Below, piece by piece: positions 9,001-63,921 of a stretch of 64,000 bases of DNA (position 1 is its first letter; the number at the start of each line of letters is the position of its first letter). The stretch is taken from the IMG/VR virus record IMGVR_UViG_3300028833_000075, positions 64,001 through 128,000 of that record; one strand, given 5' to 3'. The notes beneath the pieces are model-generated. The model was not told where the DNA came from. It saw only the letters and a program-made list of their open reading frames with translations, and searched no databases. This stretch comes from a virus. Lineage: Duplodnaviria > Caudoviricetes. Position numbers and translations under genes: made by a program.

Positions 9001-12000
9001 TTATTCATCTCGTTAGTTGTATCTTGTATTGCGCTTTTATAACCTGCGATCTTTGTTTCAGATTCTTTAATCTGTCCAGCTAATTGTGCTCCTTCTTTAC
9101 TTTTTTGCTGTTCAGGTGAGAGTTTATTAAAATCTTCACGATAGCGCTGAAGTTTTTCTTCTTCCGCTGTTTTATTTAGATTAAGGGACGCTATCTGCTG
9201 TCCGAGACTAAACCTTTGATCTGCATCGCTTCTAAGTTTGTTGATCAACATAGAGCCGGGTTGACCATATCTATTTCTCCGCCTAACGGCAGCAGCATGT
9301 TCTCTTTGCTGATGAGCAAGATCGTTTTGCGTTTCCATGCGACCAATTTGTTGGTTTTGTATATCAATCGCTCGATTTTGATTAAACATCATGTTTTCGG
9401 CGATTTCATCTTTTCTTCCTGCCCAATCACCATTATAGTATCCATTTAATCTATCATACATATCCTGCATGAATGGCTGTTCAAACGTTCCATCTGGCTG
9501 TTTATATTGCTCTAAAGCCTTCATTTGATTGAATACTTCGAGCCGTTCCTGATCTGCTTGAAGCTGAGCGCCGATTTGCATACGTGCAGTAGGTGTTTCT
9601 ATTTTTGTGAGAGCTTGTTCAATTTCAGATTTTCCAATCTCGGAAACACTTTCTTGCACAGCAGATGAAATAGGTTGAGCATCTGGAGTCTCAGCGGAAG
9701 CTGGAATTTCTGTTCTTACTTGGTCTGCGGTTGCCTGAATAGCCTGTCTTGTACCTTCTGTGATAGCTTCCCCGATTTTTCCTGCATTAGTTGATTGAGG
9801 AACTGGTATTTGTACAGGAGGAATATTCTCTGCAGCCGCAAGACTTGCATCTCTCTCTTTACTTGCAGCAGCCATTCCTTGTTCGTATGTGCTTAATATA
9901 TTTGAACGTTCTGTAGCAAGAGTCTCTTGCTGTTTAGTTAAATCTGCAACTCTTTGTTCTGCGTCTTGAATCTTTTGAGCTCTGTCTCCAGATTGGGATT
10001 TATATGCATCTTCTAATTTTCTTTCAGCAGCAGCTTTTTGGACTTCAATCGCTTCGCGCTGCTCTTGGTTTTTAGCAAGGACCGCGTCTCTGTCCTTTTC
10101 TACATCGTTTATTTCCTTGTTGATTGCGGCTGTTTGTTCTTTTGCAATTATTTCTTTGTTTTCTTTTATCTGAGTATTATATTTATTATTTGCTTCATCG
10201 TTTGCTTTATCTCGATCTTTTTCTGCTTTCTGTAGAGATTCTTTAATCCTTGTTTCTTCTTCTTCTGTAGATTTTATGTTTGTGTCATGTATTTTGCGGA
10301 TGTTTTCTTTTTGCCTTTCAAAATTTTCCGTTCTGTCTGGACTTGAATATTCAGATTTTATTGTTCGTTCCTTTTCGTACAAAGAACTTTCTCTTTTTTC
10401 GTATCTCTCTTTTTCTTCTTCATATGCCTTAGTTTTTAATTCGTTTTCAGTTTCTATTCTTTGTCTGTATTTTTCATCTGCATATGCTATATCCTTACCG
10501 TGATCTCTATTTGCGGCTTCTATTCTCCTTTGTTTTTCATATTTATCGTAACCTGTATAATCATCATTTTCTATTCTAGCAAGTTTTTCTTCGAGAGATA
10601 AATCGGCAGCAGTATAAGCTTTTTCTCTTCGTTCTTTATATGTTTCTAACGCATTATTATAATTATCTTCGATTTGTTTCTCGTTTTCTATATTTTTTCT
10701 ATCATTATCTTTCCGTTGAGCTTCAATGTCAGCTAAAGCATCATTTAATCCCTTTGTTTCTTCGCTTTCTATCATTGATAAAGCTTGTTGTTTCGACGAT
10801 TCTTCTTGAGCTTTATAATTATTTATTTCAGTTAATCTATCTTTTAATGGTTTAATTGTTTCTTCGTATTTTGCATTGTTTTCTGCAATAGATTTATCTC
10901 TTATCGCTTCAGCTTTTTTATTGGCTTGTTCAAGCTCTGGGCTAGTTTCTGCCTTTTCTTTTTCTTTAATCCCGTTGAGTTTCTTTTGTGCATTTTCTTT
11001 AATTTCTTGATCAGATTGTTGTAAAGCTTTGAGTTGATCATCAAATGTTGTCGGCAACGTCCCTTTTTCAGCAGCAGGTAAAGCTCTAAGCTCATCTAAA
11101 CTTTTCTGCGCAGCGGCAAGATTCGTTGCAACTTCAGCCTCTTTTGGAGTAAGCTCACTAAGCTGGGAATCCCTGCTTGCTTGAAGTGCTGCAGCTTTTG
11201 CGTCGTATGAAGTTTGAGCTTTTGCTTTTGCTTCTTGGATAGACACTTGCCTGTCTGCTTCAGCTTTTTCTTGAGCTGCTTTAGCTTCTTCAGCTCTCTT
11301 TTGTTCCGCCTCTAAAGCGGCCTGTCGTTCTGCTTCGGCTTTTTCTTGAGCGATTCTGGCTTCTTCAGCTTTTCTTTGTTCTTCTTCCAGTCTCTGTTGT
11401 TCAGCAAGACGTGCTTGTTCTTCTTCCTGTAAACGTTCTTCTTCTGTTTTCTGCGGAGGAAGTTGTTGAGAGGGAAGGGGAGTAGTAGCAGGAACGCCAA
11501 GAGCTTTAGATGTGCTAAGACGATCGATAAGTGCCTGTGCGTTCATCGCGACTTTAGACCTTGAAACTAAACTTTCTTGTTTTAATTCTGTTCTATAATC
11601 TTCTTCGGTTGCTGAATTAAGCATTTCAGTTAATCGGTTGTAGTCATCTTCTTTTATAATGTCGTTTTGATGCAGATTTTCTAATGAGGTTAAAATCTGT
11701 TCTCTCTGTTGATTGAAGGCGGCAACTCTTAAAGATATTTTTTGATCAATTGGCGCATTTTTTCCCATTGAGGATACGAGAATTTTTTCAACATCCATTT
11801 GCATGGATTTTGTTGCATCTTCAGAAAGTATTTTCTCATAACTTTCTTTCATCTCTTCGCTTGCTTGAAGTTGTTGCTCAGCTTCTTTTAATGCCTTTTC
11901 GTCTTCTGGTGTTTTATTTTCTTTGTTATACAAAAGATTGTATGCAGCTTGCGCACGTTCAAAATCTTCATCAATTGATTTTCGTTCATTTAAAATACGT

Positions 12001-15000
12001 TTAGCACTGCTTGTTGTATTATGTGTATATATTTTCTCAGCAATGCTTTCGGAAAAGTTTGCAAGATCTCCTGTCGCTCCAGCTCGAAGTGTTTTTTCAA
12101 ACTGTTCGCGGCCTGTGTTAAAACTAGTTTGAAATAGTGCAATTTCATCAGGCGAAGCATTACGGTTGCGCATCCTTGTTGTAACATCCATATATCCTTC
12201 AGGAGAATACATATATGCATAATTATCCCACTGAGACCTGCTTGGTCTTGTTTTATCATATCCTAACTCTCTTGAACGAAGTTTGTTTTGTATCGCCTCG
12301 TAACGTTCAATTTGCTCATCAATGTAATTTCTATTGGAAAATGCGCTTGTTAATTCTCCGGTATTTTGTACTCCTACATTAACCCCGTTCGGTATTGGTG
12401 CACCGGCTGCAGTAGCGGCCTGTGTGATAAACTCCGAAGACAACGGGCCACCAGAAGGCATTTGACGAACAGATCCACGGACAACATTTGGAAGTAAATA
12501 AGGATCGAAATATCCATTAAGAATTTCTCCTAATATGTCTTTTTTCCCAGCCAAAGGTATTATTGCACTGCTAATTTTTGCCATTCGGTCTTCAACCGAT
12601 GAAACGAGTTCTGGTGTTACTTCTATTGATTGAGTTTCCAATTTTCCGCCTTTATAAGAAATAATTCCAGCTCTTTGTGCGCCATTGGCACCTGCATAAA
12701 CAACAGGCTGATCAAATTTGTGGACGCCGATCAACGAAGAGTCGTGATCGAATCCATTCTTTAAGTCCCAGTTCGTTCGAACACCATTTGCATCTTCCGA
12801 AACAACATCGACATAGCCAATGGTTTTTAATCGATTTCCGTTTTGGTCCGTTCCAAAATTTGGATGCACAACTCCGCCATTCTTTTCCGTTCCTACAATC
12901 TTTTGGTCTCTAAGTAAATTCGGGAATTGCTTTGCCGCTTCAACAATTTCTTTATACCGTGTTTTTACTTTTTCGTCATACAAAGGACTATCTTCTGTTG
13001 GAAGTTCAGGGAATAATTTCTGACGAGTATCTGGATCCTGCCAATTCTTCAGATAATTATTTACATAATCGACCATTTCTTCAGGAGTTCCATAATCCTC
13101 ATTATTCTCCATTCTTCTTTTTGCCCAATATGATTGAGTTTCATGAAGAGCTGTACCGAGTAATTGAATAGGTGTTGTAGGTTTTTGCTCGTTTTCTATA
13201 TATTTTTTATACCAATTAAGCGGACCTGCTGTTTCTTTTTCTATAGAATGAAGCTGCGACCATGAAAAATTCCTGCTAAGTAAATTTTGAATTTGTTCCG
13301 ATGTGACTGCTTTTTCAGCGCTTGCTTTTTGTGCAGCCAACAAAGCTTCATCTCCGCCTGAAATAGCGTTCATTCTTGCTTTAATTGCATCTTGTTCTGC
13401 ATTAAAACTTTGATCAAATAAGCTTGTTTCTCCTGTAACTCTACCTTTAGCTAAGCCAGAAAACGGAATAAATCCTTCTCCTCTTAATTTTGCTTGTTCT
13501 GTTAATCCAAATTCTTTTAAATGACGCATCCGTCCGCGTTGAAATTGCACATCATGTAATTGATCCATCCAAGAATTTATTTTATCTTTATTTCCGGGTT
13601 CTGTTATTTTTGTTTTTTGAAGTTCCGTATTAACAAGCGTTTCCCAATTTGCCAGATAACCAAGCATTTCATCTTCGTCTTTTTGAGACACAAACTGAGC
13701 GCGGTTTGATACAAATTGAGCCATTACTTCATTGTTTTTTCTTAAATATTTTGCTTTGGCTAAATCTACAGGGTTTTCAGAGTTTTCTAAATTTTTTATT
13801 CCTTGTAAGTGTTCTTGCATTTGGATGAATTGATTAATAATATTATCGCTATAAGGATTATCCATACCTGCAGCAATAGCACTTGTCGTTAAATTCGAAT
13901 ATCTTGATGGGAAGTTGACTTGAGAAAAATCTTTAACCTTTGAAAAATCTCCTTCTTCTATAGCTCCTTGCAGGTTTTTAAACATACGAACATAAGGAGT
14001 TCCCATTTTTCTGGCTTGATTTGCAGAATGTGACCATTTTGCAAGAATTCCTGTCTTAGCAAAAGTTGTGTCGATATCATACATTGCCCGAAGATCAACG
14101 CCTGCTTGTTGTGCAAAGCGAGCCCACTCCGGATCACTCCAATTTCCCTGGGCTAAAGCATCGTTAGCGTTAGAGACGGCCGCCATATCGAAAACAGAAG
14201 CAGCTTTTCTATATAGAATGTCGGCATAATCAGAAGCTTGTACTTTTCTGGCTTTTCCGTTTTCTGTAAGTGGGATATCGTCGTCACTTTTAACGGACGT
14301 ATTTAGTTTTTCAATATTTTTTCCTCTTGATTCATACGTGCGCTTTACGGTTTCGGCTAACTTTTTTCTAACAGCTTGAATTGTATCTCCGTCAACATCT
14401 CCACCGCCCATCTTTTTTATCGTATTCATGTTGACTATCATTGCATCTCGGCTCATTTGATATTTATCAAGCGCATCAATATACTCTTTTGAATTAAGTA
14501 ATTCAAACTGTTCTCCGAGATTATTAGGATATCTCCATCCGCCAAGTTCAAGTGTATCTGCCCATGAAGCTAAAGCGACTGCATCTGCGTCGCCTTTTCC
14601 TTTCAAACTCAACGCGTTAGCAAGATGTGTATTTTTAGGTCGTAATTTTACTTTTTGCTTGCCCGCAATCGCAGAAATTAATTCAAAAGGATTGTTTAAT
14701 GCTAACGCATTTATAGCGTCGCCTTTTGAATATAAACGTTGATTACGTCTATCGTCCATAGCTTTTAAAATTGCATCATCTACTCGCTTTCTAGCTTCCG
14801 GATCTGAAAAAAACAAACTTTTATCTTTTTGAACTCTTTGAGCGAGCGGATCGTCCGGGTTTGAGAACAACATATCTATTGTTTTGGCCGGATTTGTTCT
14901 AAGTGTTTGGATGTATTCATTCCATTTTTTGTTATTGCTTTCGATTTCTTCCGGCGTCAAATCTAAGTTTTGCGTCACTTGTCTTGAAATAGAATCAGTT

Positions 15001-17312: not shown

Positions 17313-17392
17313 AAATTTACACATCCTTTCTTATATATTTGACATTTGCTTATATTATTGGTAACATGTATAAAAAACAGGAGGTTAACATT

Positions 17393-39482: not shown

Positions 39483-40410
39483 GCAGCCTGAGCCAAGGGG
39501 AGTGAAAGCTCCCCAAATTCAGGCAGGGCGACCCATTTTTCAGGCGGGGGGAATTTTTCCGCTTCGCTACTCTGCGCCTTTTCCGAGGATCTCGACACGC
39601 GAAGAGTGGCCACCTTGCGGTGGCCGTGGAAAGTGCATGACTGCAATCTCCATGATTGCAGTTTCTGCGTAGTATCGCCAGAGATCGCCTTGCGGCGGCA
39701 ACGGGACACGGTAGGCTGGCAACTACCGCAGGGGCATCACCTGTAAAAGCTTCGGCGCATTGATGCTGGCCCAACGTGTACCCTGCATGAGTGGTACACC
39801 GAACAGGGCATCCTAGCTGGCTGGCAGCGAGCCGCAGTAGACACCTGCGTTACGCAAGCCGTTGGAATAACGTAGAAGCCCGCATGCGACAGCGTGAACA
39901 TGCCGCAGGAGTGCGTGAAACCCCGGCGACCTGCTATAGTCGTGAGCCCACCCAGAGGGCTGGGCGGCAGAAACGTTGCGAAGGCTGTCAGATAGACAGT
40001 CGTAAACACCCAAAGACCATGCTGTGCGGTAGAACACCGTAGAACGGACGCGAAAATCCGTGGCGGCGCAGAAGCTACCCTGCGTTATCAAAGCAGGCCT
40101 TGGCGGTTGGTGAATGATAGGGGAACCGCTCTCAGGACGCACAGTGCCACAAGTGCGTGTACGAGAAGACAGCAGGCACAGACCAGATGGTCGACACTCT
40201 GGTTCCCTTTGCAGAGGGCACCCGAATGGACTGCAATCTATTTCGGGTGTAATGCGCCGCCGCCGAGTCCCAAGCCTCGGGGTTTATACGCAGGTACGTC
40301 CGGGTACACGTTACTGCCCACCATATTTCACTTCCGCAGCGTTGTGCTGAGAACAGCGTTGCGTTGTTGTGTGCCTTTCCGACCGCCTTGCGGCTGGTTT
40401 GGAATATGAG
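39483..40410 (+). ncRNA. Candidate large structured non-coding RNA (~0.9 kb)
   Basis: GC-rich, no RBS-led credible ORF, many stem-loops (GGGGAG-TGAAAG-CTCCCC; GGCCACC-TTGC-GGTGGCC), starts right after an early promoter-like element. Confidence 0.45.
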
Positions 40411-55698: not shown

Positions 55699-56082
55699 AT
55701 GAACGGACTTAATGAACTCACTATTATCGGAAATGTTGTACGTGACGCTGAACTGAAGAATGTTGATGTGGAAGGAACACCGACTCCTCGATGCCGCTTC
55801 TCTGTTGCGGTTAACGAAACACGCGGAAACGGAGAAGATATTGTTACTTATTTCGATATTACAGCTTGGCGGGATTATGCAACAAAGATTGCGCCGTGGG
55901 TCCTGAAAGGACGCCTGGTTTATGTTAAGGGTTCTGTGCGGCTGAATCAGTATGTTTCCAACGGTACCGTACGGAGTTCTCTGCAGATTCATGACCCAAA
56001 GGTTATCTGGCTTGATAAGAAACCCACGGTTGACGTCAGCTCAATTGAAGAGTTTGACGACGACGAGCTTCCGTTCGGTTAA
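55699..56082 (+). CDS. ssb: Second single-stranded DNA-binding protein
   Basis: IIGNVVRDAE...FSVAVN...KGRLVYVKG; DDELPF tail. Confidence 0.9.
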   Translation: MNGLNELTIIGNVVRDAELKNVDVEGTPTPRCRFSVAVNETRGNGEDIVTYFDITAWRDYATKIAPWVLKGRLVYVKGSVRLNQYVSNGTVRSSLQIHDPKVIWLDKKPTVDVSSIEEFDDDELPFG

Positions 56083-56154
56083 TTAAATATCGCACGCTCC
56101 GGTATGTCGGAGCGTGTTTCTTATAGATATTTTATTGAAAGAAGGTTGAATCCC

Positions 56155-56373
56155 ATGTGCAAGGTGACTCTGTCTGATGAGGATGGGCTGTTTAAAATTT
56201 GCCTTGTTTCAAATGAAACCCCATACCAAATTTTAAAGTATTACAATATTAACCCTGATACAAAAATTGTTTATTTGAATGGAGAAATTCTTTCAAAAGA
56301 AAGAATGAGGAAAGTAATTCTAGAAAACAATTCTGTGCATCTTACGGTTAGAAATAAAACAGTAATGCGATAA
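56155..56373 (+). CDS. Small ubiquitin-like (beta-grasp) protein, no terminal Gly
   Basis: 72 aa, TP.QIL....INP...IVYLNG pattern of ThiS/MoaD-like folds; heads E1/E2/JAB operon. Confidence 0.5.
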   Translation: MCKVTLSDEDGLFKICLVSNETPYQILKYYNINPDTKIVYLNGEILSKERMRKVILENNSVHLTVRNKTVMR

Positions 56374-56428
56374 TAAAACATGTCTATAAAGCTTCGGCTT
56401 TTAGAAAATAATTTATAGGAGAGATTGT

Positions 56429-57040
56429 ATGGTTAAGATTACTTTGATTACCAGTAACCCTAAGGTAGTTGACATTGTGCCCGAGACAATGACCGTTCGT
56501 GATTTTCTGGATAAGCATAATGTGAACTATGGATTGGCATCTACTTCCATTGATGGTGTACCTCTGCAGTCCGGTGGTATGGATATGACTTTTGCCGAAT
56601 ATCAGATTACAGACCGGGCTATTGTGACCTGCCTGCCGAACAAGGACAACGGAGCGCAGGCCATTGTGGTTGGTTCTTCCTGTGTTGTGAAGTCCACTCT
56701 GACCCCGGCAGAAATTAAGCGAATTAAGAAGTTCCATCCCGAAGCTTTGGTAATGGAAAATGAAGACGGAGATCCGGTATTTGCTATCGATATCGATGAA
56801 ACCACTCCTGGTTCTATTAACGGGAATGGTGCCTGTTTCGGCAATGCAACAAGTACCGATGGTAAGGCAACTATTACGGTTGTTATTGATCCTGCCGCTG
56901 AAAACACTATTGAGCTGGTTTACGAAAGGCTGGGCCGTGCTCTGATGTATCTGAAGGAAATGGAAGAGCAGCTTGCTGAAGTTTTACCGGATTTGGACAG
57001 CGAAGAACGTGAAATCCGTTCCATGATTGTTGGTATGTAA
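56429..57040 (+). CDS. Ubiquitin-like domain fused to C-terminal domain
   Basis: N-terminal ~75 aa (TVRDFL....V......IDGVPL...MDMTFAEY.I) ending in KDNG. Confidence 0.65.
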   Translation: MVKITLITSNPKVVDIVPETMTVRDFLDKHNVNYGLASTSIDGVPLQSGGMDMTFAEYQITDRAIVTCLPNKDNGAQAIVVGSSCVVKSTLTPAEIKRIKKFHPEALVMENEDGDPVFAIDIDETTPGSINGNGACFGNATSTDGKATITVVIDPAAENTIELVYERLGRALMYLKEMEEQLAEVLPDLDSEEREIRSMIVGM

Positions 57041-57094
57041 CCTTCGGAGAGGGAGAGATTCTTCCTCTCCCTCTCTATTTTACGGAGGTAAAAC

Positions 57095-58459
57095 ATGTTC
57101 AATACACACTTAAATTGTATTGCAGAATTTCCTGCATTTTTAAGAGACAAGATTTATGTAAATAATAATGTAGCCCCGGATGACACGCTGCTGATGACAG
57201 CAACTGCGTTGTTGTATCAGAGAGTTGAAAATCTGAAATTAACTTTTGAAGTATTTAATAACAAAGAAGTAGAAAATATCAATCTAAACCCGGAAGTATA
57301 TTCATTTCATTGGTTTAATAATGTTGGAAATCCAGATGAGCTGTTAAATTTAGTAAAGAATAATTTTACTTCAATAGAAAAACTTTCAACTCATGAAAAG
57401 TTTCTGTCTGAGCAACTGAAAATGCCAATATTTATTCGCTTAATGCCAGCTGAAAATACTGTCTGTATTTTCACTTCAGAAATGTCTTATAAAGCGTGGC
57501 ACAGTTTTCAGTTCTTTATTCCAAAATACTTCAGGATTTTCAAAGAAAAACCACTTAACAAAGAAGAAATTTCTTTTCTCGAAACCTTGACGTTCAAAAC
57601 AAGTTCTTTGTATGAAGCGAGGTTGAGAGAATTATTAGATACGGATTCTTTCAGAAAATATATTTTAAAAGATCGATTGGAACAGTTTGAAAGAAAGCTG
57701 TTTGAAGCTAAAGTTCAAGCTGCCAAAAACAATCTTGCAAGCCTTGAAAATGAAATGAACGCGGCCATGGAAGCTTATAGAAAAGCTTGCGAGAAAAGAA
57801 TTGAAGCTATTGCGCTTGTATCAGGTCTGCAATCTATGGCAGATCAGACGGAAGAACACACTGAATTGCAGGATTACCTGTTAAATAATCAAAGGCTTTG
57901 CAATGTAACACTAGATAATTCCACGATTTCATACATTGTGAAAACATATCTGGCCCCACACCATATAGGCGAATGGGAAATGATAACAAAACACATTCAG
58001 TATTTTGATCAGTATCTTACAAGCAAATTTACACGCACAGAGATAAAGCTTCTGCTTGATGCGATCTTCTCGGAAAACCGCTGCCTAAAAGTAAAAATGT
58101 GTGCCTATTTCTCTTTGGATTACTTTGGAAGCAAGGTTACATCAGCATATAAATATAATTTTGCTAATGTAAACAAAACACTGATGAACTATATTCCAAA
58201 CCCTCATTTGCACTATCATAATTGCTTTGGGCAGAATAAGGAAGCAATATTGGAACAGCTAAAATGCGGCGATGCAATCGGAGCGATCGAGTGCTCTGTG
58301 GCTTGCGCTCAAAGGGTTAACATTCACGAAAATCTGAGCTTTGGACCTTTTGTGCGGGACTTGTTATCATGTTCCGGCAAATGTCTTGTAACGGAAGATG
58401 GAACTGAATTAACGCCAGAGGAAGCTGTTGCATATCTGAAAGGACAAGATAATGAATAA
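57095..58459 (+). CDS. Coiled-coil protein with C-terminal E2-like domain
   Basis: Central coiled coil; PNPHLHYHNCFG resembles the HP...C catalytic segment of prokaryotic E2 families; adjacent to JAB and E1. Confidence 0.55.
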   Translation: MFNTHLNCIAEFPAFLRDKIYVNNNVAPDDTLLMTATALLYQRVENLKLTFEVFNNKEVENINLNPEVYSFHWFNNVGNPDELLNLVKNNFTSIEKLSTHEKFLSEQLKMPIFIRLMPAENTVCIFTSEMSYKAWHSFQFFIPKYFRIFKEKPLNKEEISFLETLTFKTSSLYEARLRELLDTDSFRKYILKDRLEQFERKLFEAKVQAAKNNLASLENEMNAAMEAYRKACEKRIEAIALVSGLQSMADQTEEHTELQDYLLNNQRLCNVTLDNSTISYIVKTYLAPHHIGEWEMITKHIQYFDQYLTSKFTRTEIKLLLDAIFSENRCLKVKMCAYFSLDYFGSKVTSAYKYNFANVNKTLMNYIPNPHLHYHNCFGQNKEAILEQLKCGDAIGAIECSVACAQRVNIHENLSFGPFVRDLLSCSGKCLVTEDGTELTPEEAVAYLKGQDNE

Positions 58460-59039
58460 TGAAATTGTATTGAAAGACTGGCAAACTCACTGTGGGTTCG
58501 CCAGTCCACAAAGTAATATAAACATTTACTATTCACCTTTGGCTATTACAAAAACAATTATGCTTGTAAATACCCATCCTGAAGAAATTGGTTGGAATAT
58601 GGTAGTAAAGCCTTATAAAGACGGGTATAAAGTTGAGGATATCGTAGTATATCCCCAAAAAGTAAGTCCGGCATATGTTTCAGTTGACCTTCCAAGGTAT
58701 GGATTGTGGAAAGCAAACCTTGACGACGAAGTAGAAGCTAATTTGTTTGGAAACGGACATTCTCATGTTAACATGAGTACTTTCGCATCATCCGTCGATG
58801 AACGTCAGCAGCATGATGAAATCCTGACAAAGAAAAACGGATTTTATCTTTTCCAGATATGGAACAAAAGAAATGAAATAAGCTCATTCTTTTATGATAT
58901 TGATAATAAAATTTTCTATCGACCGGAAAATGTTAACATAATCGTAGAAGAAGCAAATGAGTTTATTATAAACTCTTTTGAAATCGTACAAGGAAGACAT
59001 AATCGGATCAACGCTTATGAGGCAGGTGAAGATTTTTGA
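58452..59039 (+). CDS. JAB/MPN+ metallo-isopeptidase
   Basis: EIGW...GHSHVNMSTFASSVD (E...HxH...S..D). Confidence 0.85.
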   Translation: MNNEIVLKDWQTHCGFASPQSNINIYYSPLAITKTIMLVNTHPEEIGWNMVVKPYKDGYKVEDIVVYPQKVSPAYVSVDLPRYGLWKANLDDEVEANLFGNGHSHVNMSTFASSVDERQQHDEILTKKNGFYLFQIWNKRNEISSFFYDIDNKIFYRPENVNIIVEEANEFIINSFEIVQGRHNRINAYEAGEDF

Positions 59040-59704
59040 ATCTAAGTAAATCTTATGAGTTTTTTAATCCGGATAAATGCAAGGAAATGATCCATATTAT
59101 TGGTTGTGGATCTGTCGGCTCTACGGTAGCTGAACTTTTGGCAAGATTTGGTTTAACAAAAATCTCGCTATATGACTTTGATACTGTTGAGCCGCATAAT
59201 ATTGTAAACCAGATGTTTGTTCATCGCCAAATCGGAATGCCGAAGGTAGAAGCTGTACGAGAAATTTTGTTAGATATCAATCCTGAAATGAATGTTAAGA
59301 TGTATACCAAAGGATGGAACGGCGAGCCTCTGGATGGATACGTATTTCTTGCAGTAGATAATATTGAACTAAGAGCAAAAATTGTAAAAGAAAACCTATA
59401 TAATGATTTTATAAAAGCTTTCTTTGATTTCAGAACCGGACTTACAAATGCTGACCACTTTGCAGCAGATTGGTCCGAATTTAAAAGCAGAAAAAATTTT
59501 TTAAACACGATGAACTTTACACACGAAGAAGCGAAACAAAATACACCTGTTTCAGCGTGTAATGTAGCTCTGTGTGTAGCTCCTACAGTAAGAATGGTTT
59601 GTAATGTAGGAATAGCAAATTTCATCAATTTTGTAAAAGGAGAACATTTGCATAAGCTGATTCCAATTGATGCATTTAGTTTCTCTGTCGAACCTGTTGG
59701 TTAA
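59036..59704 (+). CDS. ThiF/E1-like adenylyltransferase
   Basis: IIGCGSVGS, DFD.VEPHN..NQ, KVEA, AVDN...R; candidate catalytic Cys in PVSAC. Confidence 0.9.
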   Translation: MNLSKSYEFFNPDKCKEMIHIIGCGSVGSTVAELLARFGLTKISLYDFDTVEPHNIVNQMFVHRQIGMPKVEAVREILLDINPEMNVKMYTKGWNGEPLDGYVFLAVDNIELRAKIVKENLYNDFIKAFFDFRTGLTNADHFAADWSEFKSRKNFLNTMNFTHEEAKQNTPVSACNVALCVAPTVRMVCNVGIANFINFVKGEHLHKLIPIDAFSFSVEPVG

Positions 59705-59728
59705 TATAGGTTAATCTATATTCCAAAT

Positions 59729-60028
59729 ACTCATGCAATGCATAGTGAGAGAAATCTCGAACTCTTAATGTGATTATGAGTAGCAATTCGCCTGATGAGG
59801 GGGTAGGGCTCCTGAAAGAGCTGGAGGCGGCGGACGTCGAAGAAATCCTAGGAAAATGTGGGCAGCGTGATAGAAAAGTCCTGTAATCTCGGAGGAAATA
59901 AGGTAGGCACGAGGGAAAGGTAAAGGGAAGTCAGTTGAAACGCGGTAAACGGTAGATAAAAGGCCTGGATCCTGGGAACGTTTCGGTCGTCACTGGAAAG
60001 ACATATAACGATTTAGATTGCATGGAGT
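59729..60028 (+). ncRNA. Retron-like msr-msd RNA 1 (upstream of RT)
   Basis: Terminal inverted repeat ACTCATGCAAT (59729-39) / ATTGCATGGAGT (60017-28); G59740 directly after 5' arm; GAGA-GAAA-TCTC hairpin; 3' block shared with RNA 2. Confidence 0.65.
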
Positions 60029-60035
60029 GATAAAA

Positions 60036-61166
60036 ATGATTTACATAACAATCAGACAGAAAGAAAAAGAAAAACAAATTAGTTGGCTTGATTTAATCAG
60101 CGAAGAAGAAATTCCTCTCAGTGATTTCTCTTCGTGCGGCTCTGCCGGAACTGTAACAAGAGCGCTTAATGAGGCAACGCCCGAACTGCTTCGCAGAATT
60201 AATCCAGAAGAAATGATTAATGTTTTGAAACGGTTTAATACCTCACATGAAAACCTGTTTAAAGCAGACCGTAAAACTCTGTATCGACATTTCAGCATTC
60301 CAAAGAAAACAGGTGGACTGCGGCCTATCGATGCGCCATGTGATGAGCTTCAAAATGCGCTGGATGAACTGAGGATTATCTTAACTGAAAAGTTTGGAGT
60401 TCTTTATCATACATCGGCCTTTGCATACATTCCGAATAGAAGCACTGTACAGATGGTAAGAAAACATCAGGTAAATGAATCAAATTGGTTTTATAAAACA
60501 GACGTCAGCGGATTCTTTCCACACACGACACTGAGCTTTACAATGAAGATGCTGTCAATGATCTTTCCTTTAAGTGAGATTTGCAAAGTACAGGAAGGAT
60601 ATGCAGAACTGGAAAAAGCTTTAAGTCTTGGTTTCCTAAACGGCGGTCTTCCGCAGGGAACAAAACTGAGTCCGGCGCTGACGAATATGATTGCTATCCC
60701 GATTGATCATCGACTGTTTAATGATCTTGCGCACAAGCGTTTTGTGTATACTCGATATGCAGATGATCTGCATATTTCATGTCAGCAGAAATTCGATTCT
60801 GAAAAGATGACTAAATACATTGAAAAGGTATTTAAAGAATTTGATGCTCCATGGATTCTGAAGCCCGAGAAAACACATTACGGAAGCAGAAAAGGTAAGA
60901 ATTTTATGCTTGGTGTAGTTCTTAACGCGAACAATGATATTTCGACGGGATGGAGAAATAAGAAGCTTTTCAAAGCAATGACAACAAACTTAATTATGGA
61001 TTGGAAAAATAATAAGTATTGGCCCGCCGATGACGTTCAACAGTACGCAGGGTTATTGTCTTATTATAAAATGGTAGAGAAAGAATACTTCGATAATCTG
61101 GTAGATCACTTTAACAATAAATTCTCTGTAAACCTCAAACAAATTATAAAGGAACTAGTTTCCTAA
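60036..61166 (+). CDS. Retron-type reverse transcriptase (376 aa)
   Basis: IPKKTGGLRPI, SAFAY, KTDVSGFF, LPQGTKLSP, YTRYADDL, KTH...MLGV; no maturase/endonuclease extension. Confidence 0.9.
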   Translation: MIYITIRQKEKEKQISWLDLISEEEIPLSDFSSCGSAGTVTRALNEATPELLRRINPEEMINVLKRFNTSHENLFKADRKTLYRHFSIPKKTGGLRPIDAPCDELQNALDELRIILTEKFGVLYHTSAFAYIPNRSTVQMVRKHQVNESNWFYKTDVSGFFPHTTLSFTMKMLSMIFPLSEICKVQEGYAELEKALSLGFLNGGLPQGTKLSPALTNMIAIPIDHRLFNDLAHKRFVYTRYADDLHISCQQKFDSEKMTKYIEKVFKEFDAPWILKPEKTHYGSRKGKNFMLGVVLNANNDISTGWRNKKLFKAMTTNLIMDWKNNKYWPADDVQQYAGLLSYYKMVEKEYFDNLVDHFNNKFSVNLKQIIKELVS

Positions 61167-61176
61167 TTTTACAGTA

Positions 61177-61342
61177 TGACATAATGAATTGCATTAAATG
61201 CTCAGTGCATGTAATGAACTGATAGGCAACGATACAGTCTATCCAATTGTAATGTTGTACAGCTGCAGAAAATGAAATGCTTGATTTTCTGCAGCTGTAA
61301 ACCTTACAATTGGAATGTCAATAATATATTTAGATCATGTCA
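61177..61342 (+). ncRNA. Retron-like msr-msd RNA 2 (downstream of RT)
   Basis: TGACATAAT (61177-85) / ATCATGTCA (61334-42) arms, G61186, short hairpins, then long hairpin 61242-61314. Confidence 0.7.
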
Positions 61343-61439
61343 GATGTACAATTTGGAAAGAAAACCGTAAAATGGTAAGCTAAAAAGTGTCAAACATATT
61401 GATAATAAACACTTCCGATGATGTCAAATCTGGTGGGGA

Positions 61440-61464
61440 CATTCGAGAATTTACGTAATGGGGA
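61440..61464 (+). promoter_or_regulatory. CATTCGA...GGGGA promoter-like motif ahead of hairpin array
   Basis: CATTCGAGAATTTACGTAATGGGGA. Confidence 0.6.
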
Positions 61465-61467
61465 AAG

Positions 61468-61786
61468 AATGCACAGCTAAAACAGCTTACTTTTTATTAA
61501 GGTTCAAAATAGTTGTTTTATATCGTGCATTTTATACATTATTCTCTACTGGGCAAATTGGCAGCTAATAACGTTTACTTTTTTTATAGCAAATGAGCCG
61601 TAGAGGCTCGCATATTAAATTAACGTTATGATTTGCCAAACAAACAAAGCTAGTGCGGCTTACTATATATATATAGAAATAAAAGAAGAAAACAGTCGCA
61701 CAATTTCTACTTTATGCGGAACGCTAGTCAGGCTTACTTTTCTAAAATACTTGGAATATTTTTAGTTTGACGATACCGTTCCGCAT
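61468..61786 (+). ncRNA. Array of four homologous hairpin RNAs (GCUA - 7-bp stem - UUACU)
   Basis: Units ~61468-61531, 61558-61639, 61646-61706, 61714-61786 with covarying stems. Confidence 0.7.
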
Positions 61787-61810
61787 CTTTTTTCTGAAAG
61801 GAGTAAGGTT

Positions 61811-62842
61811 ATGAAGGAATTATTCAAAGAGTATCTGTTTACTAAACACATTCTTGTTGCAACAAGCGAACCGACTGCAGAAGAAAGTTTTAATACGCTT
61901 GTTGCGCTGAAGAATCAGCTTGGAATTGAAATTACAAAAGGGAAAGAATCTGCAAGTTCAGATTTAATCAGATTTGCAGCAAACAATCTTGGAGAATATA
62001 TTCCTGAACCTTTTTATCGCGGGTTCCCGGAAACCGTAAAACAACTTAATAAAGATCAGCTGTTGTTCGATCAAGTATTTCATTATTTTGTGACATACGG
62101 TCTCGGTGAATTCGACGAAGCAGGACATTCGCTTTTCGAGAAAGAGTTTGAACGGCTCGCCTTTAACGAAGACGTTACTCAAAAGGAATTTGAAATTCTG
62201 AGTGAAGCCGATGCGATTGACAGGCTTCAAAATTATGTTATTAATCTGCTTGAAAGTTCACGACCGCTGAGTGAAGATACTTATGTCATTGTCAGCGAAG
62301 TTATGCGGGACTATATGATCGTTCCGAAGGCAATTTCATGCAAGCAGACCGCCGTGCGGCTGCTTTATGACACGAAAGCTGTCTATCGTTATGGTCGGTA
62401 CATCTCTCTCGCAGACGTAATTAAGCTTGTTGATTATATTAATTATACTGTTTACAGTAATGAAAATCTTAAGAAACTCAACCTTAGAAATAAAGACAGA
62501 AAACTTATTACTAAGGTGATTGACTTTTGTTTCGACAGCAAACGGTATAATTACAACGAGTGTTTCGAGAAGCGTAAGATATGGTGCGGCCTGCTTCACC
62601 ATATTCACTATCGTCCTGACAACGATGCGGCAGTTACTTTTGTGACGCTGATTCGTGAAGGCAAAAATATTTCTGCATACAGCAGATTCGAAGAAGAGAT
62701 GTCCGATAATAATGTCGGTAAGGCTGCAGAAATTCTTTACAATGAGAAAGGCTCATCTATAGTAATTCGCAACCTGAATTATCTCTTGTCTCGGTGCAAA
62801 TCCGAAGAAGACGTAAAAGAGGTGTTATCATGGGTAAAATAA
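61811..62842 (+). CDS. Alpha-helical protein, N-terminal partner of TerD-like gene (possibly Rot/TROVE-like)
   Basis: PFYRGFP..V, LLH.IHYRP, IVIRNLNYLL; overlaps next gene. Confidence 0.55.
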   Translation: MKELFKEYLFTKHILVATSEPTAEESFNTLVALKNQLGIEITKGKESASSDLIRFAANNLGEYIPEPFYRGFPETVKQLNKDQLLFDQVFHYFVTYGLGEFDEAGHSLFEKEFERLAFNEDVTQKEFEILSEADAIDRLQNYVINLLESSRPLSEDTYVIVSEVMRDYMIVPKAISCKQTAVRLLYDTKAVYRYGRYISLADVIKLVDYINYTVYSNENLKKLNLRNKDRKLITKVIDFCFDSKRYNYNECFEKRKIWCGLLHHIHYRPDNDAAVTFVTLIREGKNISAYSRFEEEMSDNNVGKAAEILYNEKGSSIVIRNLNYLLSRCKSEEDVKEVLSWVK

Positions 62843-63876
62843 ATCCCATCGTTTTAATTCAGATGCTGATGCAGTACCATAATTACTCAACAAAGCCTCG
62901 TGTATTTAAGTTTACGCGGAATAACAGGCTCAGAATGCATCGGGAATCTGAAGAAGAACAGGAAAAACGCAAATCTGTCCTGTCGCCTGAAATCAGAGCA
63001 GCTGCAGAGAAAACAATTAAGTCTCAGCTTTGGGAGTCTCTGAAAGGACGAGCAGGAAAAGTCTATGTAGATCCTGCGATGAAATCAATTGCAGTTCCGC
63101 TGCAGATGTCTGTTTCTCAAAACGGATTCGATGTTCTTCCTGCTGGCTCTCGGGTGAAAATTCCAGAAGGCAAGAAGATCAGAGCTTTTACTTATTGGGA
63201 AAAGGTAAACGATATCGATCTGTCTTGTTTCGGTTTGACAGAAGACGGAACTCAGCAGGAGTTCTCATGGAGAAATATGTATGATCGGCAAAGTTCCGAT
63301 ATTACTTTCTCTGGTGATGAAACATCCGGTTATAATGGCGGCTCGGAATATTTTGATATTAACTTAAATCTTTTTAAAGCGAAGCATCCTGATTTCAGGT
63401 ATGTTGTCTTTTGCGACAATGTATATTCTAATGGCGGCAGCACTCATTTCAACAAGTGTTTCTGCAAAGCTGGATTCATGATTCGCGATGAAAAAGATAG
63501 CGGCGAAATCTACGAGCCAAAAACCGTTAAAACCTCATTCCGTGTGGATGGGGATTCATCTTTTAGTTATATGTTTGCTATCGATCTTGACACGAGAGAA
63601 ATGATTTGGCTGAACATGTCTCGCGAAGGCAATCATGCTATCGCTGGAGAAGAAAAGATGGATTTCCTGATGAGTTATCTGACTGCTACCGAAGTGTTTA
63701 ATGTTTATGATCTGTTTAAAGCATGCGGAGAGAAAGCTACAACCATTCTCGACGCAGATGTAATTGTAACCGATTATACTTTCAATGAGCCTTCGATTGC
63801 GGAAGCAATCAAAGACAAAGAGATTATTCGGTCTTACGACTTTGAAAAGATCTTAAAATACATTCAGCCACAATAA
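62830..63876 (+). CDS. TerD-like domain protein
   Basis: FTYW...DIDLS, FSGDETSG..GGSEYFDI. Confidence 0.65.
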   Translation: MGKINPIVLIQMLMQYHNYSTKPRVFKFTRNNRLRMHRESEEEQEKRKSVLSPEIRAAAEKTIKSQLWESLKGRAGKVYVDPAMKSIAVPLQMSVSQNGFDVLPAGSRVKIPEGKKIRAFTYWEKVNDIDLSCFGLTEDGTQQEFSWRNMYDRQSSDITFSGDETSGYNGGSEYFDINLNLFKAKHPDFRYVVFCDNVYSNGGSTHFNKCFCKAGFMIRDEKDSGEIYEPKTVKTSFRVDGDSSFSYMFAIDLDTREMIWLNMSREGNHAIAGEEKMDFLMSYLTATEVFNVYDLFKACGEKATTILDADVIVTDYTFNEPSIAEAIKDKEIIRSYDFEKILKYIQPQ

Positions 63877-63921
63877 GGTTTTATCGGAACGTATTAAGTG
63901 CGGGTACGTTTCGTTAAAATA

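Follow-up and report, generated by a model that had tools for sequence, protein, structure and literature searches.

The gene block described here lies on a 150,578-bp phage record from sheep gut, at positions 56155-61166 of the 64,000-nucleotide stretch that we analysed (the window; all coordinates refer to it, and all features given below are on the + strand). It comprises, in order, a ubiquitin-like protein (Ubl1), a Ubl fusion, a 454-aa E2-like candidate, a JAB peptidase, an E1, a retron-type ncRNA and a reverse transcriptase (RT). ORF coordinates confirmed the co-oriented Ubl, E2-like, JAB, E1 and RT genes described in an earlier, sequence-only reading of this DNA, as well as the overlaps among the enzyme genes, which amount to 8 nt between E2-like and JAB and 4 nt between JAB and E1. 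The distance from the E1 stop (59704) to the start of the RNA (59731), put at ~25 bp in that reading, measured 25-26 nt. That no clear terminator separates E1 from the retron RNA agreed with a consensus scan, which detected no terminator-like site on the + strand between 57136 and 63089. The scan placed a terminator-like hairpin at 57046-57070, past the end of the Ubl-fusion gene and ahead of the enzyme genes. Contig depth in RNA libraries, a crude measure of expression taken here from runs on one sample of one study, was 12.5 over the Ubl gene compared to 1.7-5.7 over the enzyme genes.

Ubl1 (72 aa, 56155-56373) is a divergent ubiquitin-like paralogue, which an iterative HMM search started from the cassette Ubl family recovered at 4e-11, the alignment ending short of the C-terminus. 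It lacks the conserved Asn/Gly-Ala C-terminal processing motif and is clade-specific, being restricted to the closest relatives (L001, L007 and L016; tblastn matches in L001 and L007 only). The second Ubl forms the N-terminal part of a 203-aa fusion protein (gene 56429-57040; AF2 model pLDDT 92.9). Residues 1-75 of this model resembled SUMO, ubiquitin and ISG15 in Foldseek (TM ~0.65, rmsd 2.7-3.0 Å) and in a VIA search (Z 8-9.7), and the structural matches included the Ubl of a bacterial E1-E2-Ubl complex (8tyz_B, Z 8.8). Of the two Ubl genes proposed earlier, the fusion has the ubiquitin/SUMO fold; Ubl1 is a clade-specific gene without the processing motif. The Ubl domain proper (residues 1-74, 56429-56650) ends in K-D-N74, followed by G75-A76, and a JAB cut is predicted from this sequence after N74 or G75. 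Among 123 distinct relatives the Ubl C-terminus was Asn-Ala in 95 and Gly-Ala in 17. In the phage Ubls with this ending, the tail was a single residue in 46, 2-6 residues in 39 and a fused protein in 27. Judged by sequence, the Ubl is made as a precursor, carrying either a short tail or the entire 130-aa protein beyond Asn/Gly-Ala, in a manner that recalls the pre-processing of BilA.

The C-terminal part of the fusion, delimited by alignment of relatives (56651-57040), is a conserved 130-aa domain modelled as a beta-rich core with a C-terminal helix of 40 residues. The description of the gene as a Ubl fusion holds for the clade of the window; in most relatives the 130-aa protein is encoded by a gene of its own. 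We detected it in ~175 of 212 loci. Pfam, PDB and Atlas searches with this domain gave no match, and a BFVD search returned only its own uncharacterised phage relatives.

The 454-aa protein (57095-58459) consists of an N-domain (1-180), a long helical hairpin or coiled coil (184-249) and a C-domain (256-454), modelled by AF2 with a pLDDT of 91.5. The C-domain gave moderate matches to RWD/UBC-like folds (Z 5.9-6.8), namely the RWD domains of Knl1, listerin/Ltn1 and the SEA complex. An Atlas search returned Sos7 (TM 0.43) and a viral cluster in which 11% of members carry Prok-E2_D; Foldseek found no match and Pfam no E2 match. N369, H371 and C377 are invariant in the family (N-P-H...Cys; Cys codon 58223-58225). 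The earlier E2-like label is thus backed by the moderate fold matches and the invariant Cys and lacks a Pfam E2 match, and we regard the protein as an E2-like candidate. The next gene (58452-59039, 195 aa) encodes a JAB/JAMM metallopeptidase with the motif H-S-H-x7-S-x2-D at residues 103-116 (nt 58758-58799) and E45 upstream. E45, H103, S104, H105, S113 and D116 are invariant in 36 sequences and, judging from these residues, the JAMM active site is intact. The family profile matched Rpn11/PSMD14 only (0.001), and two of the 36 members had a Prok-JAB Pfam match. The E1 (59036-59704, 222 aa) is minimal, a single ThiF-type adenylation domain (Pfam ThiF 9.4e-25) that has its ATP-binding residues and an invariant Cys; the invariant positions are G23-C-G25..G28, D47, K70, D108 and C175. 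Mean column identity in the family alignment was 67%. Outside the block we found no close relative of this family, the next matches being 42-45% identical over ~70 residues. NCBIfam matches were below threshold (ThiF 84.5 bits, cut-off 159; PRTRC_ThiF 23 bits, cut-off 144.75).

A retron-like RNA had been proposed upstream of the RT, and we found an ncRNA of ~295 nt there (59731-60025). It begins with a1 (59731-59739) and an invariant G directly 3' of it (59740), followed by msr hairpins 1 (~59746-59759) and 2 (~59765-59785), a conserved GTAGCAAnTCG-type motif ending near 59794, a long template part (~59800-60016) and a2 (60017-60025), with a conserved TAG just upstream of a2. With the a1/a2 helix anchored at the base preceding the invariant G, its length was 9 bp in the window. 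Across 33 diverse loci it ranged from 6 to 13 bp (median 9) and reached at least 7 bp in 97%, compared to 24% of permuted pairs. Hairpin 1 was present in all 33 loci with differing stem sequences. In hairpin 2, 89.8% of cells were paired and 61 cells carried double changes, a level reached by none of 500 shuffles. The a1/a2 helix and both hairpins thus covary, in agreement with the earlier proposal. Our RNA model R1 scored the window ncRNA at 38 bits, and ncRNA length ranged from 255 to 370 nt. Folding of the whole RNA was no better than that of shuffles (z -0.39), and the would-be cDNA of the window formed no stable hairpin (z +1.57). RNA-library contig depth, crude as it is, was 23-108 over the ncRNA versus 0-6 in the flanking genes, or 10-30x deeper. 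One such contig ended at 60016, one base short of a2, and none bridged E1, ncRNA and RT.

The RT (60036-61166, 376 aa) belongs to the retron clade and carries the Y-A-D-D catalytic motif (Pfam RVT_1 3e-17). Alignment with homologues begins at residue 7 of the frame opening at 60018, which moves the start to 60036. The best-scoring PADLOC models were all retron RT types (RT_II-A, 1.1e-43), and the NCBIfam retron St85 RT model matched at 6.7e-46 with 156.9 bits, below its cut-off of 235. The family has a conserved, family-specific N-terminal extension of ~75 aa and an invariant Lys90, and its homologues form 383 representative clusters at E<1e-30.

We surveyed the neighbourhood of this block in ~200 loci on IMG/VR phage contigs and MAG-binned contigs, with RT identity down to ~38% (80 IMG/VR loci, and 58 and 79 genome_contigs loci found via RT and via E1, respectively). 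A survey of this kind had been suggested to learn whether RT homologues are linked to the Ubl pathway genes. Where the flank was long enough, nearly all loci showed this linkage, in favour of the earlier reading, with the order 130-aa/Ubl, E2-like, JAB, E1, RNA, RT retained. The linkage persisted at RT identities of 38-45% and E2-like identities of ~23-27%, and loci centred on E1 nearly always had an RT. Among 65 non-redundant loci compared for flank turnover, the cassette families occurred in 88-98% and no flanking family in more than 46%. Conservation of the whole block in ~200 loci excludes chance, and divergence of the proteins to 23-40% identity indicates a long time span. Judged by these comparisons, all parts of the module are co-inherited as a block. 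Near-universal as it is, the linkage had three exceptions: two loci with the conjugation genes and no detected RT, one of them incomplete, and one RT without those genes. In L175/G001 the conjugation genes are followed by an msr-like RNA and no RT was detected in the MAG; in L122/G003 an RT with msr-like RNA adjoins an integrase in a bacterial chromosome.

We favour, with somewhat better than even confidence, the reading that the block functions as a single module of the phage and represents a new type of retron, whose partner is a Bil-like set of ubiquitin-like conjugation proteins and not a single toxin. As the earlier reading had supposed, the pairing appears undescribed; our literature search found no paper on it. 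In the proposed course of events, JAB would trim the Ubl ahead of Ala and so free the 130-aa protein from the fusion, E1 would adenylate the new C-terminus of the Ubl, and the E2-like protein would accept the Ubl on Cys377 and hand it on to lysines of target proteins. Priming on the G at 59740, the RT would make RT-DNA from the stretch that precedes a2, and the complex of RT, RNA and RT-DNA may hold or license the partner enzymes, as in other retrons. Any change to the RT-DNA in the course of infection would then act as the switch for tagging. Such a module could serve to exclude competing phages, in counter-defence, or to tag host or phage proteins. We count for this reading the near-universal linkage, the Ubl-E2-DUB-E1 order and Ubl ending, as in BilABCD, the retron features of RT and RNA, the RNA-contig depth over the ncRNA, the lack of close E1 relatives outside the block, and the retention of the RT in a rearranged block (L191). 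Counted against it are the Asn at most Ubl C-termini; the weak E2-like identity; the exceptions L175 and L122, together with the distant RT of L181 and L206; and the folding z values and the lack of a bridging RNA contig.

The carriers may, on the other hand, all be related large gut phages, in which case the synteny would be inherited. The Bil-like kit and the retron of these phages would then be two independent modules, adjacent by descent within one phage group. We consider this unlikely. In keeping with independence, the carriers are nearly all phage-like contigs of 50-180 kb sampled from gut and rumen, E1 and RT can be set apart by insertions of 1-7 kb (6-7 kb in L181 and L206), each half occurs once alone, and RNA contigs bridging the halves were not found. 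The turnover of flanking families around a near-constant block and the long time span argue against it, as does the placement of the RT between JAB and E1 in L191. In addition, L175, L181 and L183 retain an msr-like RNA directly behind E1 where the RT is distant or missing, and the E1 and RT families are both uncommon outside the block.

The favoured reading, of a retron with a conjugation set as partner, can be compared with known systems. Like retrons, of which the nearest by RT model are type II-A and retron St85 (Sen2), the block has an ncRNA directly upstream of the RT with a1/a2, an invariant G and covarying msr hairpins, and co-conserved accessory genes. It differs in that the partner consists of five Ubl-pathway proteins instead of a single toxin, whether nucleoside deoxyribosyltransferase-like or of another kind. 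Further differences are an RT below the St85 family cut-off with its additional N-terminal region, and a long RNA whose template part in the window has no stable hairpin. BilABCD, the ubiquitination-like antiphage operons of bacteria (types I and II), share the order Ubl, E2, JAB DUB, E1 (PMC10557695). Both Ubls are precursors with a cut before Ala; BilC removes the last residue of BilA by cutting between Gly97 and Ala98 (PMC10557695), and the phage cut is predicted. A JAMM-type peptidase and a conserved Cys in E1 and E2-like protein are common to both. The phage E1, in contrast, is a single adenylation domain where Bil E1 has IAD, AAD and CYS, and the phage E2-like protein has the added N-domain and coiled coil and no E2/CEHH sequence match. 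The phage Ubl mostly ends in Asn, a 130-aa protein and a retron are added, and the set is phage-encoded rather than located in bacterial defence islands. In Bub, too, the Ubl is fused to a partner protein and freed by the operon's own peptidase, BubCD cutting BubAB (PMC11601596). According to that source, Bub works through oxyester intermediates and a serine protease, whereas the phage set has a JAMM peptidase and invariant Cys175 (E1) and Cys377 (E2-like).

Type II CBASS likewise couples an E1/E2/JAB set, Cap2 (an E1-E2 fusion) and Cap3 (JAB), to a nucleotidyl-transferring enzyme, and its nucleotidyltransferase is regulated by Cap2/Cap3 via conjugation (PMC10557695). By analogy, the phage kit might attach its Ubl by conjugation to the RT or an RT-bound 130-aa protein, thereby priming or tethering it, with JAB reversing the step. 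The kit would under this scheme be a regulator of the retron and not its effector. The best defence-HMM match of the phage E1 in PADLOC is the E1 part of CBASS Cap2 (1.9e-18; 33 models), it also matches the 6A-MBL cap2_3 model (6.7e-18), and the RT family offers its conserved N-terminal extension and invariant Lys90. We nevertheless hold such reverse control to be improbable. A separate Ubl is present, unlike in CBASS, so that conjugation need not go through the C-terminus of the polymerase; among ~200 loci no RT-Ubl fusion occurred; and at least one bacterial locus (L122) has the RT with an msr-like RNA and no kit. In further differences from CBASS, the phage E1 and E2-like protein are separate, an RT and its template RNA take the place of the CD-NTase, and there is no cyclic-nucleotide effector.

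Least likely, and indeed doubtful, is that Ubl and E1 are a carrier/adenylation pair for nucleic-acid or small-molecule chemistry instead of protein tagging, given that a universally conserved partner has an invariant Cys in an RWD/UBC-like domain, gene order and one-residue tail are BilABCD-like, and rhodanese, cysteine desulfurase and sulfurtransferase genes were not found in the block. Such a pair could act in sulfur transfer (ThiS/ThiF, MoaD/MoeB or CysO/Mec type) or in an MccA/MccB-type linkage of a C-terminal Asn to a nucleotide; the latter variant might modify or cap the RT-DNA. Among curated models, ThiS adenylyltransferase ThiF matches the E1 best (7.6e-24, below cut-off), the minimal single domain of the E1 is like that of ThiF/MoeB, and sulfur carriers too are trimmed by JAB peptidases (Mec+/CysO, QbsD/QbsE). 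In microcin C synthesis MccB, a ThiF-type adenylating enzyme, requires the Asn in which its substrate MccA ends, as most phage Ubls do. MccA is a heptapeptide and not a beta-grasp protein, and the MccB/MccA pair has no E2-like or JAB partner. Roughly one-sixth of phage Ubls have Gly in place of Asn, so Asn-specific chemistry cannot be general.

Downstream of the window RT a second retron RNA was not confirmed by model R1, which gave only 3.7 bits at 61173-61235. An inverted-repeat search located a long near-perfect hairpin (15 + 19 bp) 3' of the RT stop, at 61242-61314. Relatives carry one to three further msr-like units directly after the RT, for a total of two to four around one RT, which together with their residence in large phages sets them apart from known retrons.

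[quoted passage not shown] The sequence-only reading had proposed that these form one operon coupled to a retron-type RT and had set the linkage of RT homologues in other genomes as the test. Related loci were collected with an RT profile, which gave 80 IMG/VR loci, taken from >500 matches, and 58 loci of species-representative genomes, most of them on contigs of phage size assigned to gut or rumen MAGs; an E1 profile added 79 further loci. The RT family comprised 383 clusters at 50% identity (E<1e-30), with >500 IMG/VR matches. At essentially every locus with enough upstream sequence, the E1, JAB, E2-like and 130-aa genes preceded the RT, and conversely the RT accompanied E1 in nearly all E1-centred loci; the outcome of this test speaks for the linkage proposed in the sequence-only reading. 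Among 65 non-redundant loci, five cassette families were each present in 88–98%, compared to 46% for the commonest flanking family. The E1 count (64/65) combines 50 genes found directly with 14 loci in which E1 had dropped out of the gene selection because spurious antisense ORFs overlay it; the count of the 130-aa gene was lowered in part by the same artefact. We believe that the block is probably one module, a retron partnered by a Bil-like conjugation set. Literature searches turned up no paper in which a retron is described as linked to genes for E1, JAB and Ubl.

The arrangement varied at several of the surveyed loci. A gene of 180–270 aa was often inserted between E1 and the ncRNA, two loci (L181 and L206) carried 6–7 kb between E1 and the RT, and in another (L191) the RT lay between JAB and E1. 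The conjugation genes of L175 were followed by an msr-like RNA behind E1, with no RT found in the MAG, and those of L183 had no detected RT in a locus that is cut too short to tell. Locus L122 (7027–10374), set in a bacterial chromosome with MatE, CCA-adding enzyme and MazG genes upstream, contained an RT (41% identity), a weak msr match, a 172-aa gene and a phage-type integrase, without the Ubl genes. An RT on its own, as in L122, would suit a reading of the block as two modules adjacent by inheritance alone; close relatives (RT identity 53–72%) kept the block order and differed in the genes 3′ of the RT, and we consider this reading unlikely. The whole block was also present in the Clostridiales Family XIII bacterium PM5-7 (L139, 3704–8951), on a 428,749-bp contig not labelled as a MAG; this genome is a possible cultured handle on the block. 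The DNA of 56000–63900 had no similarity to any of 50,697 phage records, and at the protein level an RT relative (40%) was found in only one phage record, MT835544, which is unannotated.

Profile comparison placed the RT in the retron RT clade. Its start was set at 60036, since alignments with homologues begin only at residue 7 of the longer ORF. All 25 of the 25 best PADLOC matches were retron RT types (best RT_II-A, 1.1e-43), and among NCBIfam models retron_St85_RT (6.7e-46) ranked ahead of group II intron RT (5.9e-23) and Drt2 (3.5e-8). Membership in the St85 (type II-A) retron family itself was rejected, as the RT scored 156.9 bits on retron_St85_RT, below the cut-off of 235, and the block has no nucleoside deoxyribosyltransferase-like gene.

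The ncRNA (59731–60025, plus strand) lies between E1 and the RT, and its ends, a1 and a2, pair as a 9-bp helix (59731–59739 with 60017–60025). Across 33 diverse loci the a1/a2 helices were 6–13 bp long and differed in sequence with compensatory changes; a helix of at least 7 bp formed in 97% of true pairs compared to 24% of permuted pairs. The helix was always anchored at the base 5′ of an invariant G (alignment column 14; 33/33 and 36/36 sequences; G59740 in the window), the predicted priming G, and (T)AG stood directly 5′ of a2 in most loci. Two msr hairpins follow. The first occurred in 33/33 sequences, its stems being unrelated in sequence. For the second, 89.8% of cells were paired and 61 cells were doubly changed, and its covariation score of 0.71 (0.25 in shuffles) was not reached in any of 500 shuffles and dropped to 0.07–0.21 when the partner columns were slid. 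By sequence and predicted pairing these are hallmarks of a retron msr with a1/a2, so the retron-like RNA of the sequence-only reading holds.

A covariance model of the 80-nt ncRNA head (R1) scored the window unit at 38 bits and gave 123 plus-strand matches across 80 loci; a typical locus has a single match 5′ of the RT and one to three more immediately 3′ of it. Relatives carried two to four msr-like units around a single RT, at R1 scores of 31–70 bits, all on the plus strand and most directly after the RT stop; they were located at 9166 and 9449 in L035, 9591, 9849 and 16988 in L076, 9348 and 10260 in L030, and 9181, 9272 and 16233 in L112. In the window, the stretch 3′ of the RT resembles a retron unit in layout by eye and corresponds in place to the downstream units of relatives; a second retron RNA there scored only 3.7 bits with R1 and is unconfirmed. 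The phage units are long (255–370 nt) compared to classical retrons. They also differ, in the window and by the energy model, in that the part to be copied lacks a stable ssDNA hairpin: the reverse complement of 59805–60016, folded as ssDNA in search of an msd stem-loop, gave –8.1 kcal/mol (z +1.57). The whole window ncRNA folded no better than shuffles in the same kind of model (z –0.39). Rfam gave no family at gathering score in the block region, and in E-value mode only hairpin-like microRNA noise at 61245–61312. Two candidate conserved features of the template part were rejected: purine richness (mean fraction 0.53, compared to 0.52 in the RT gene) and GATC enrichment (0.97 per unit, about 0.92 expected). 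The window template, at about 210 nt, contains five 6-bp palindromes, an unremarkable number given about 3 expected by our arithmetic.

Two metatranscriptome runs of one sheep-gut sample contained 67% and 44% of the region's words, and their contigs covered every cassette gene at ≥99% identity. Contig depth was 23–108 over 59712–60179 compared to 0–6 over E1 and the RT, a 10- to 30-fold difference. A 224-nt contig at depth 164.9 covered 59821–60016 and thus ended one base before a2; its 28 remaining letters were not collinear with a2 and may stem from read-through of a branch or be artefactual. This pattern fits an abundant RNA, or RT-DNA, ending where retron cDNA synthesis would start. As a sign of RT-DNA production in the window the 224-nt contig is a hint, blind to strand and to RNA versus DNA, in a data set of contigs from a single sample with possible DNA carry-over. 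No contig bridged gene junctions and run X2, one of the two, also left several stretches uncovered, which is uninformative either way. Further 3′, the intergenic stretch 61350–61817, 5′ of 61811–62842, had an RNA-contig depth of 26–35 in one run, with a contig joint that jumps back by 230 nt, from 61782 to 61553.

The conjugation genes begin with a 72-aa Ubl paralogue (56155–56373, plus strand), recognized by iterative HMM from the cassette Ubl (4e-11) and lacking the family's C-terminal motif. The Ubl fusion that follows (203 aa, 56429–57040, plus strand; AF2 model pLDDT 92.9) has a predicted beta-grasp domain at residues 1–75 whose model resembles SUMO, ubiquitin and ISG15 (Foldseek TM about 0.65, rmsd 2.7–3.0 Å); a VIA search with the fusion returned fifty ubiquitin-like chains at Z 8–9.7, including the Ubl of the bacterial E1-E2-Ubl complex 8tyz. 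Residues 76–203 are modelled as a separate domain that ends in a 40-residue helix. This 130-aa domain had no match in Pfam, the Atlas or, by profile, the PDB, and looking for it within longer fusion proteins yielded three that were uninformative or chimeric. Most relatives encode the Ubl and the 130-aa protein in separate, adjacent genes, which are fused in the window's clade; their UniProt relatives are uncharacterised proteins of human-gut Siphoviridae contigs. Among 123 distinct Ubls, the C-terminal motif was Asn-Ala in 95 and Gly-Ala in 17, and the tail after this motif was 1 residue in 46, 2–6 residues in 39 and the entire 130-aa protein in 27. At the window junction (K-D-N74-G75-A76) the residue predicted to be exposed is Asn or Gly, either being possible.

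The JAB, a JAMM peptidase (58452–59039, plus strand), has invariant Glu45, His103-Ser-His105, Ser113 and Asp116, and its family profile matched only Rpn11/PSMD14 in the PDB. The E1 (222 aa, 59036–59704, plus strand; ThiF 9e-25) has a single ThiF domain at residues 19–217, an invariant C175 in the alignment of relatives, and a length of 222–230 aa in 38/38 aligned relatives. Its family is bounded, with full-length relatives at 51–68% identity and, next, generic ThiF proteins at 42–45% over 70 residues. The E2-like, JAB and E1 genes overlap by 8 and 4 nt, and a consensus scan found no terminator-like site from these genes to the RT, as had been noted from the sequence.

Between the Ubl fusion and the JAB lies the gene for a 454-aa protein (57095–58459, plus strand) modelled with a long helical hairpin between an N-domain and a C-domain (pLDDT 91.5). 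Foldseek against the PDB gave no match at E≤0.001. An exhaustive VIA search aligned the modelled C-domain to RWD domains of Knl1, listerin/Ltn1 and a SEA-complex subunit (Z 5.9–6.8; rmsd 3.1–3.6 Å over 87–93 residues). Within the E2 fold, RWD domains form the non-catalytic branch, and E2 enzymes carry an HPN...Cys motif; N369, H371 and C377 of the 454-aa protein, which do not vary among 44 sequences with identities as low as 23%, recall this motif by their layout. Pfam found no E2 family over 44/44 members, PADLOC and NCBIfam gave no match to the protein, and a PDB profile search with the family returned coiled-coil noise only. The Atlas offered Sos7 (TM 0.43) and a viral cluster (score 0.88) with Prok-E2_D in 11% of members, which we take as leads only. 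A scan of viral_contigs with the protein alone found nothing, compared to alignment-based scans, which did find relatives. We call the protein E2-like, and not an E2.

Retrons are bacterial antiphage systems of toxin-antitoxin-like design with a single effector, and ubiquitin-like conjugation serves bacterial immunity in Bil, Bub and CBASS Cap2. The phage order Ubl, E2-like, JAB, E1, kept in about 200 loci, matches the Ubl-E2-DUB-E1 order of BilABCD (PMC10557695). Type II BilA is described as cut by BilC at the Gly97/Ala98 bond, which removes a single terminal residue and exposes Gly (PMC10557695); phage Ubls carry a comparable short tail after Asn/Gly-Ala, and precursor cleavage is predicted, by which the exposed residue would be Asn in 95 of 123 Ubls and Gly in 17. 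As in BilABCD, the predicted JAB active site (E, H-x-H, S, D) is intact, with the profile match to Rpn11. The phage candidate for the E2 or CEHH-type E2-like protein with a catalytic Cys has the invariant N369, H371 and C377 and the RWD matches, and gave no E2 sequence match. BilABCD membership was rejected, among the features tested, by E1 architecture: that of BilABCD has an inactive and an active adenylation domain with an inserted CYS, and the phage E1 is a single 222-aa domain.

Bub is described (PMC11601596) as having a Ubl-partner fusion released by a peptidase of the same operon, E1/E2 oxyester intermediates instead of a thioester relay, and a Ser-His protease. The phage Ubl is likewise fused to a partner, the 130-aa protein, in the window's clade; Bub membership was rejected, as C175 of E1 and C377 of the E2-like protein are invariant and the peptidase is a JAMM enzyme. 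PRTRC (ParB-related, ThiF-related) was rejected as well: the score on TIGR03736, the PRTRC ThiF model with a cut-off set at 144.75 bits, was 23 bits, and the cassette proteins matched none of the other PRTRC models. With type II CBASS the block shares the E1 domain only, and among defence models the E1 was nearest to the E1 part of CBASS Cap2. Type II CBASS has an E1-E2 fusion together with a CD-NTase and a cyclic-nucleotide effector; membership was rejected, as the phage E1 and E2-like protein are separate and no CD-NTase occurs among cassette or common flanking families. Control running in reverse as in CBASS, with the conjugation genes regulating the RT, has this E1 likeness in its favour, and we judge it improbable.

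If the block is one module of retron and conjugation set, as we favour, the JAB would mature the Ubl, E1 would activate it, and transfer would proceed via Cys377 of the E2-like protein, with the RT/RNA/RT-DNA complex holding or licensing the tagging. It is quite doubtful that the RT-DNA itself takes part in conjugation. In such a scheme the minimal E1 would activate the Ubl at its C-terminal Asn or Gly. The E2-like protein would dock by way of its coiled coil onto both the 130-aa protein and the RT complex and would attach the Ubl either to the hybrid of RT-DNA and RNA or to proteins selected by RT-DNA, the multiple msr-msd units serving as exchangeable cartridges; if true, this would be a phage-encoded, nucleic-acid-programmed protein-modification system. 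It seems very unlikely that the Ubl and E1 serve instead in carrier or adenylation chemistry that acts on a small molecule or a nucleic acid.

The block thus joins a retron and ubiquitin-like conjugation in one probable module, carried by a virus and not by its host. If the halves cooperate, it would be a retron with protein tagging as output or a tagging pathway under reverse-transcribed DNA, and would offer work on the evolution of ubiquitination a minimal E1 and a new family of E2-like proteins, together with a Ubl activated at a C-terminal Asn. The compact new RT/ncRNA pairs, with unusually long templates, may be useful for retron-based DNA production.

The window spans positions 64001–128000 of a virus record 150,578 bp long. 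In it, the major head protein, portal and large terminase genes are on the minus strand, adjoined by a giant minus-strand ORF of at least 5,774 aa (3–17324) that runs off the window start. Five tRNAs are present, as is a type-P5 twister ribozyme (40210–40279, plus strand; 48.3 bits, gathering score 37.6). Small plus-strand genes extend from ~34 kb onward, and the block is located among them, just 3′ of an SSB gene (55699–56082). Downstream, a 360-aa protein (62794–63876, plus strand) matched the MXAN_6230/SCO0854 RING-domain family (2.4e-26) over profile positions 446–711 of 842, in the C-terminal two thirds and without the RING part, and also matched PHROG 33734; its gene lies outside the conserved cassette and is missing from the related locus L001.
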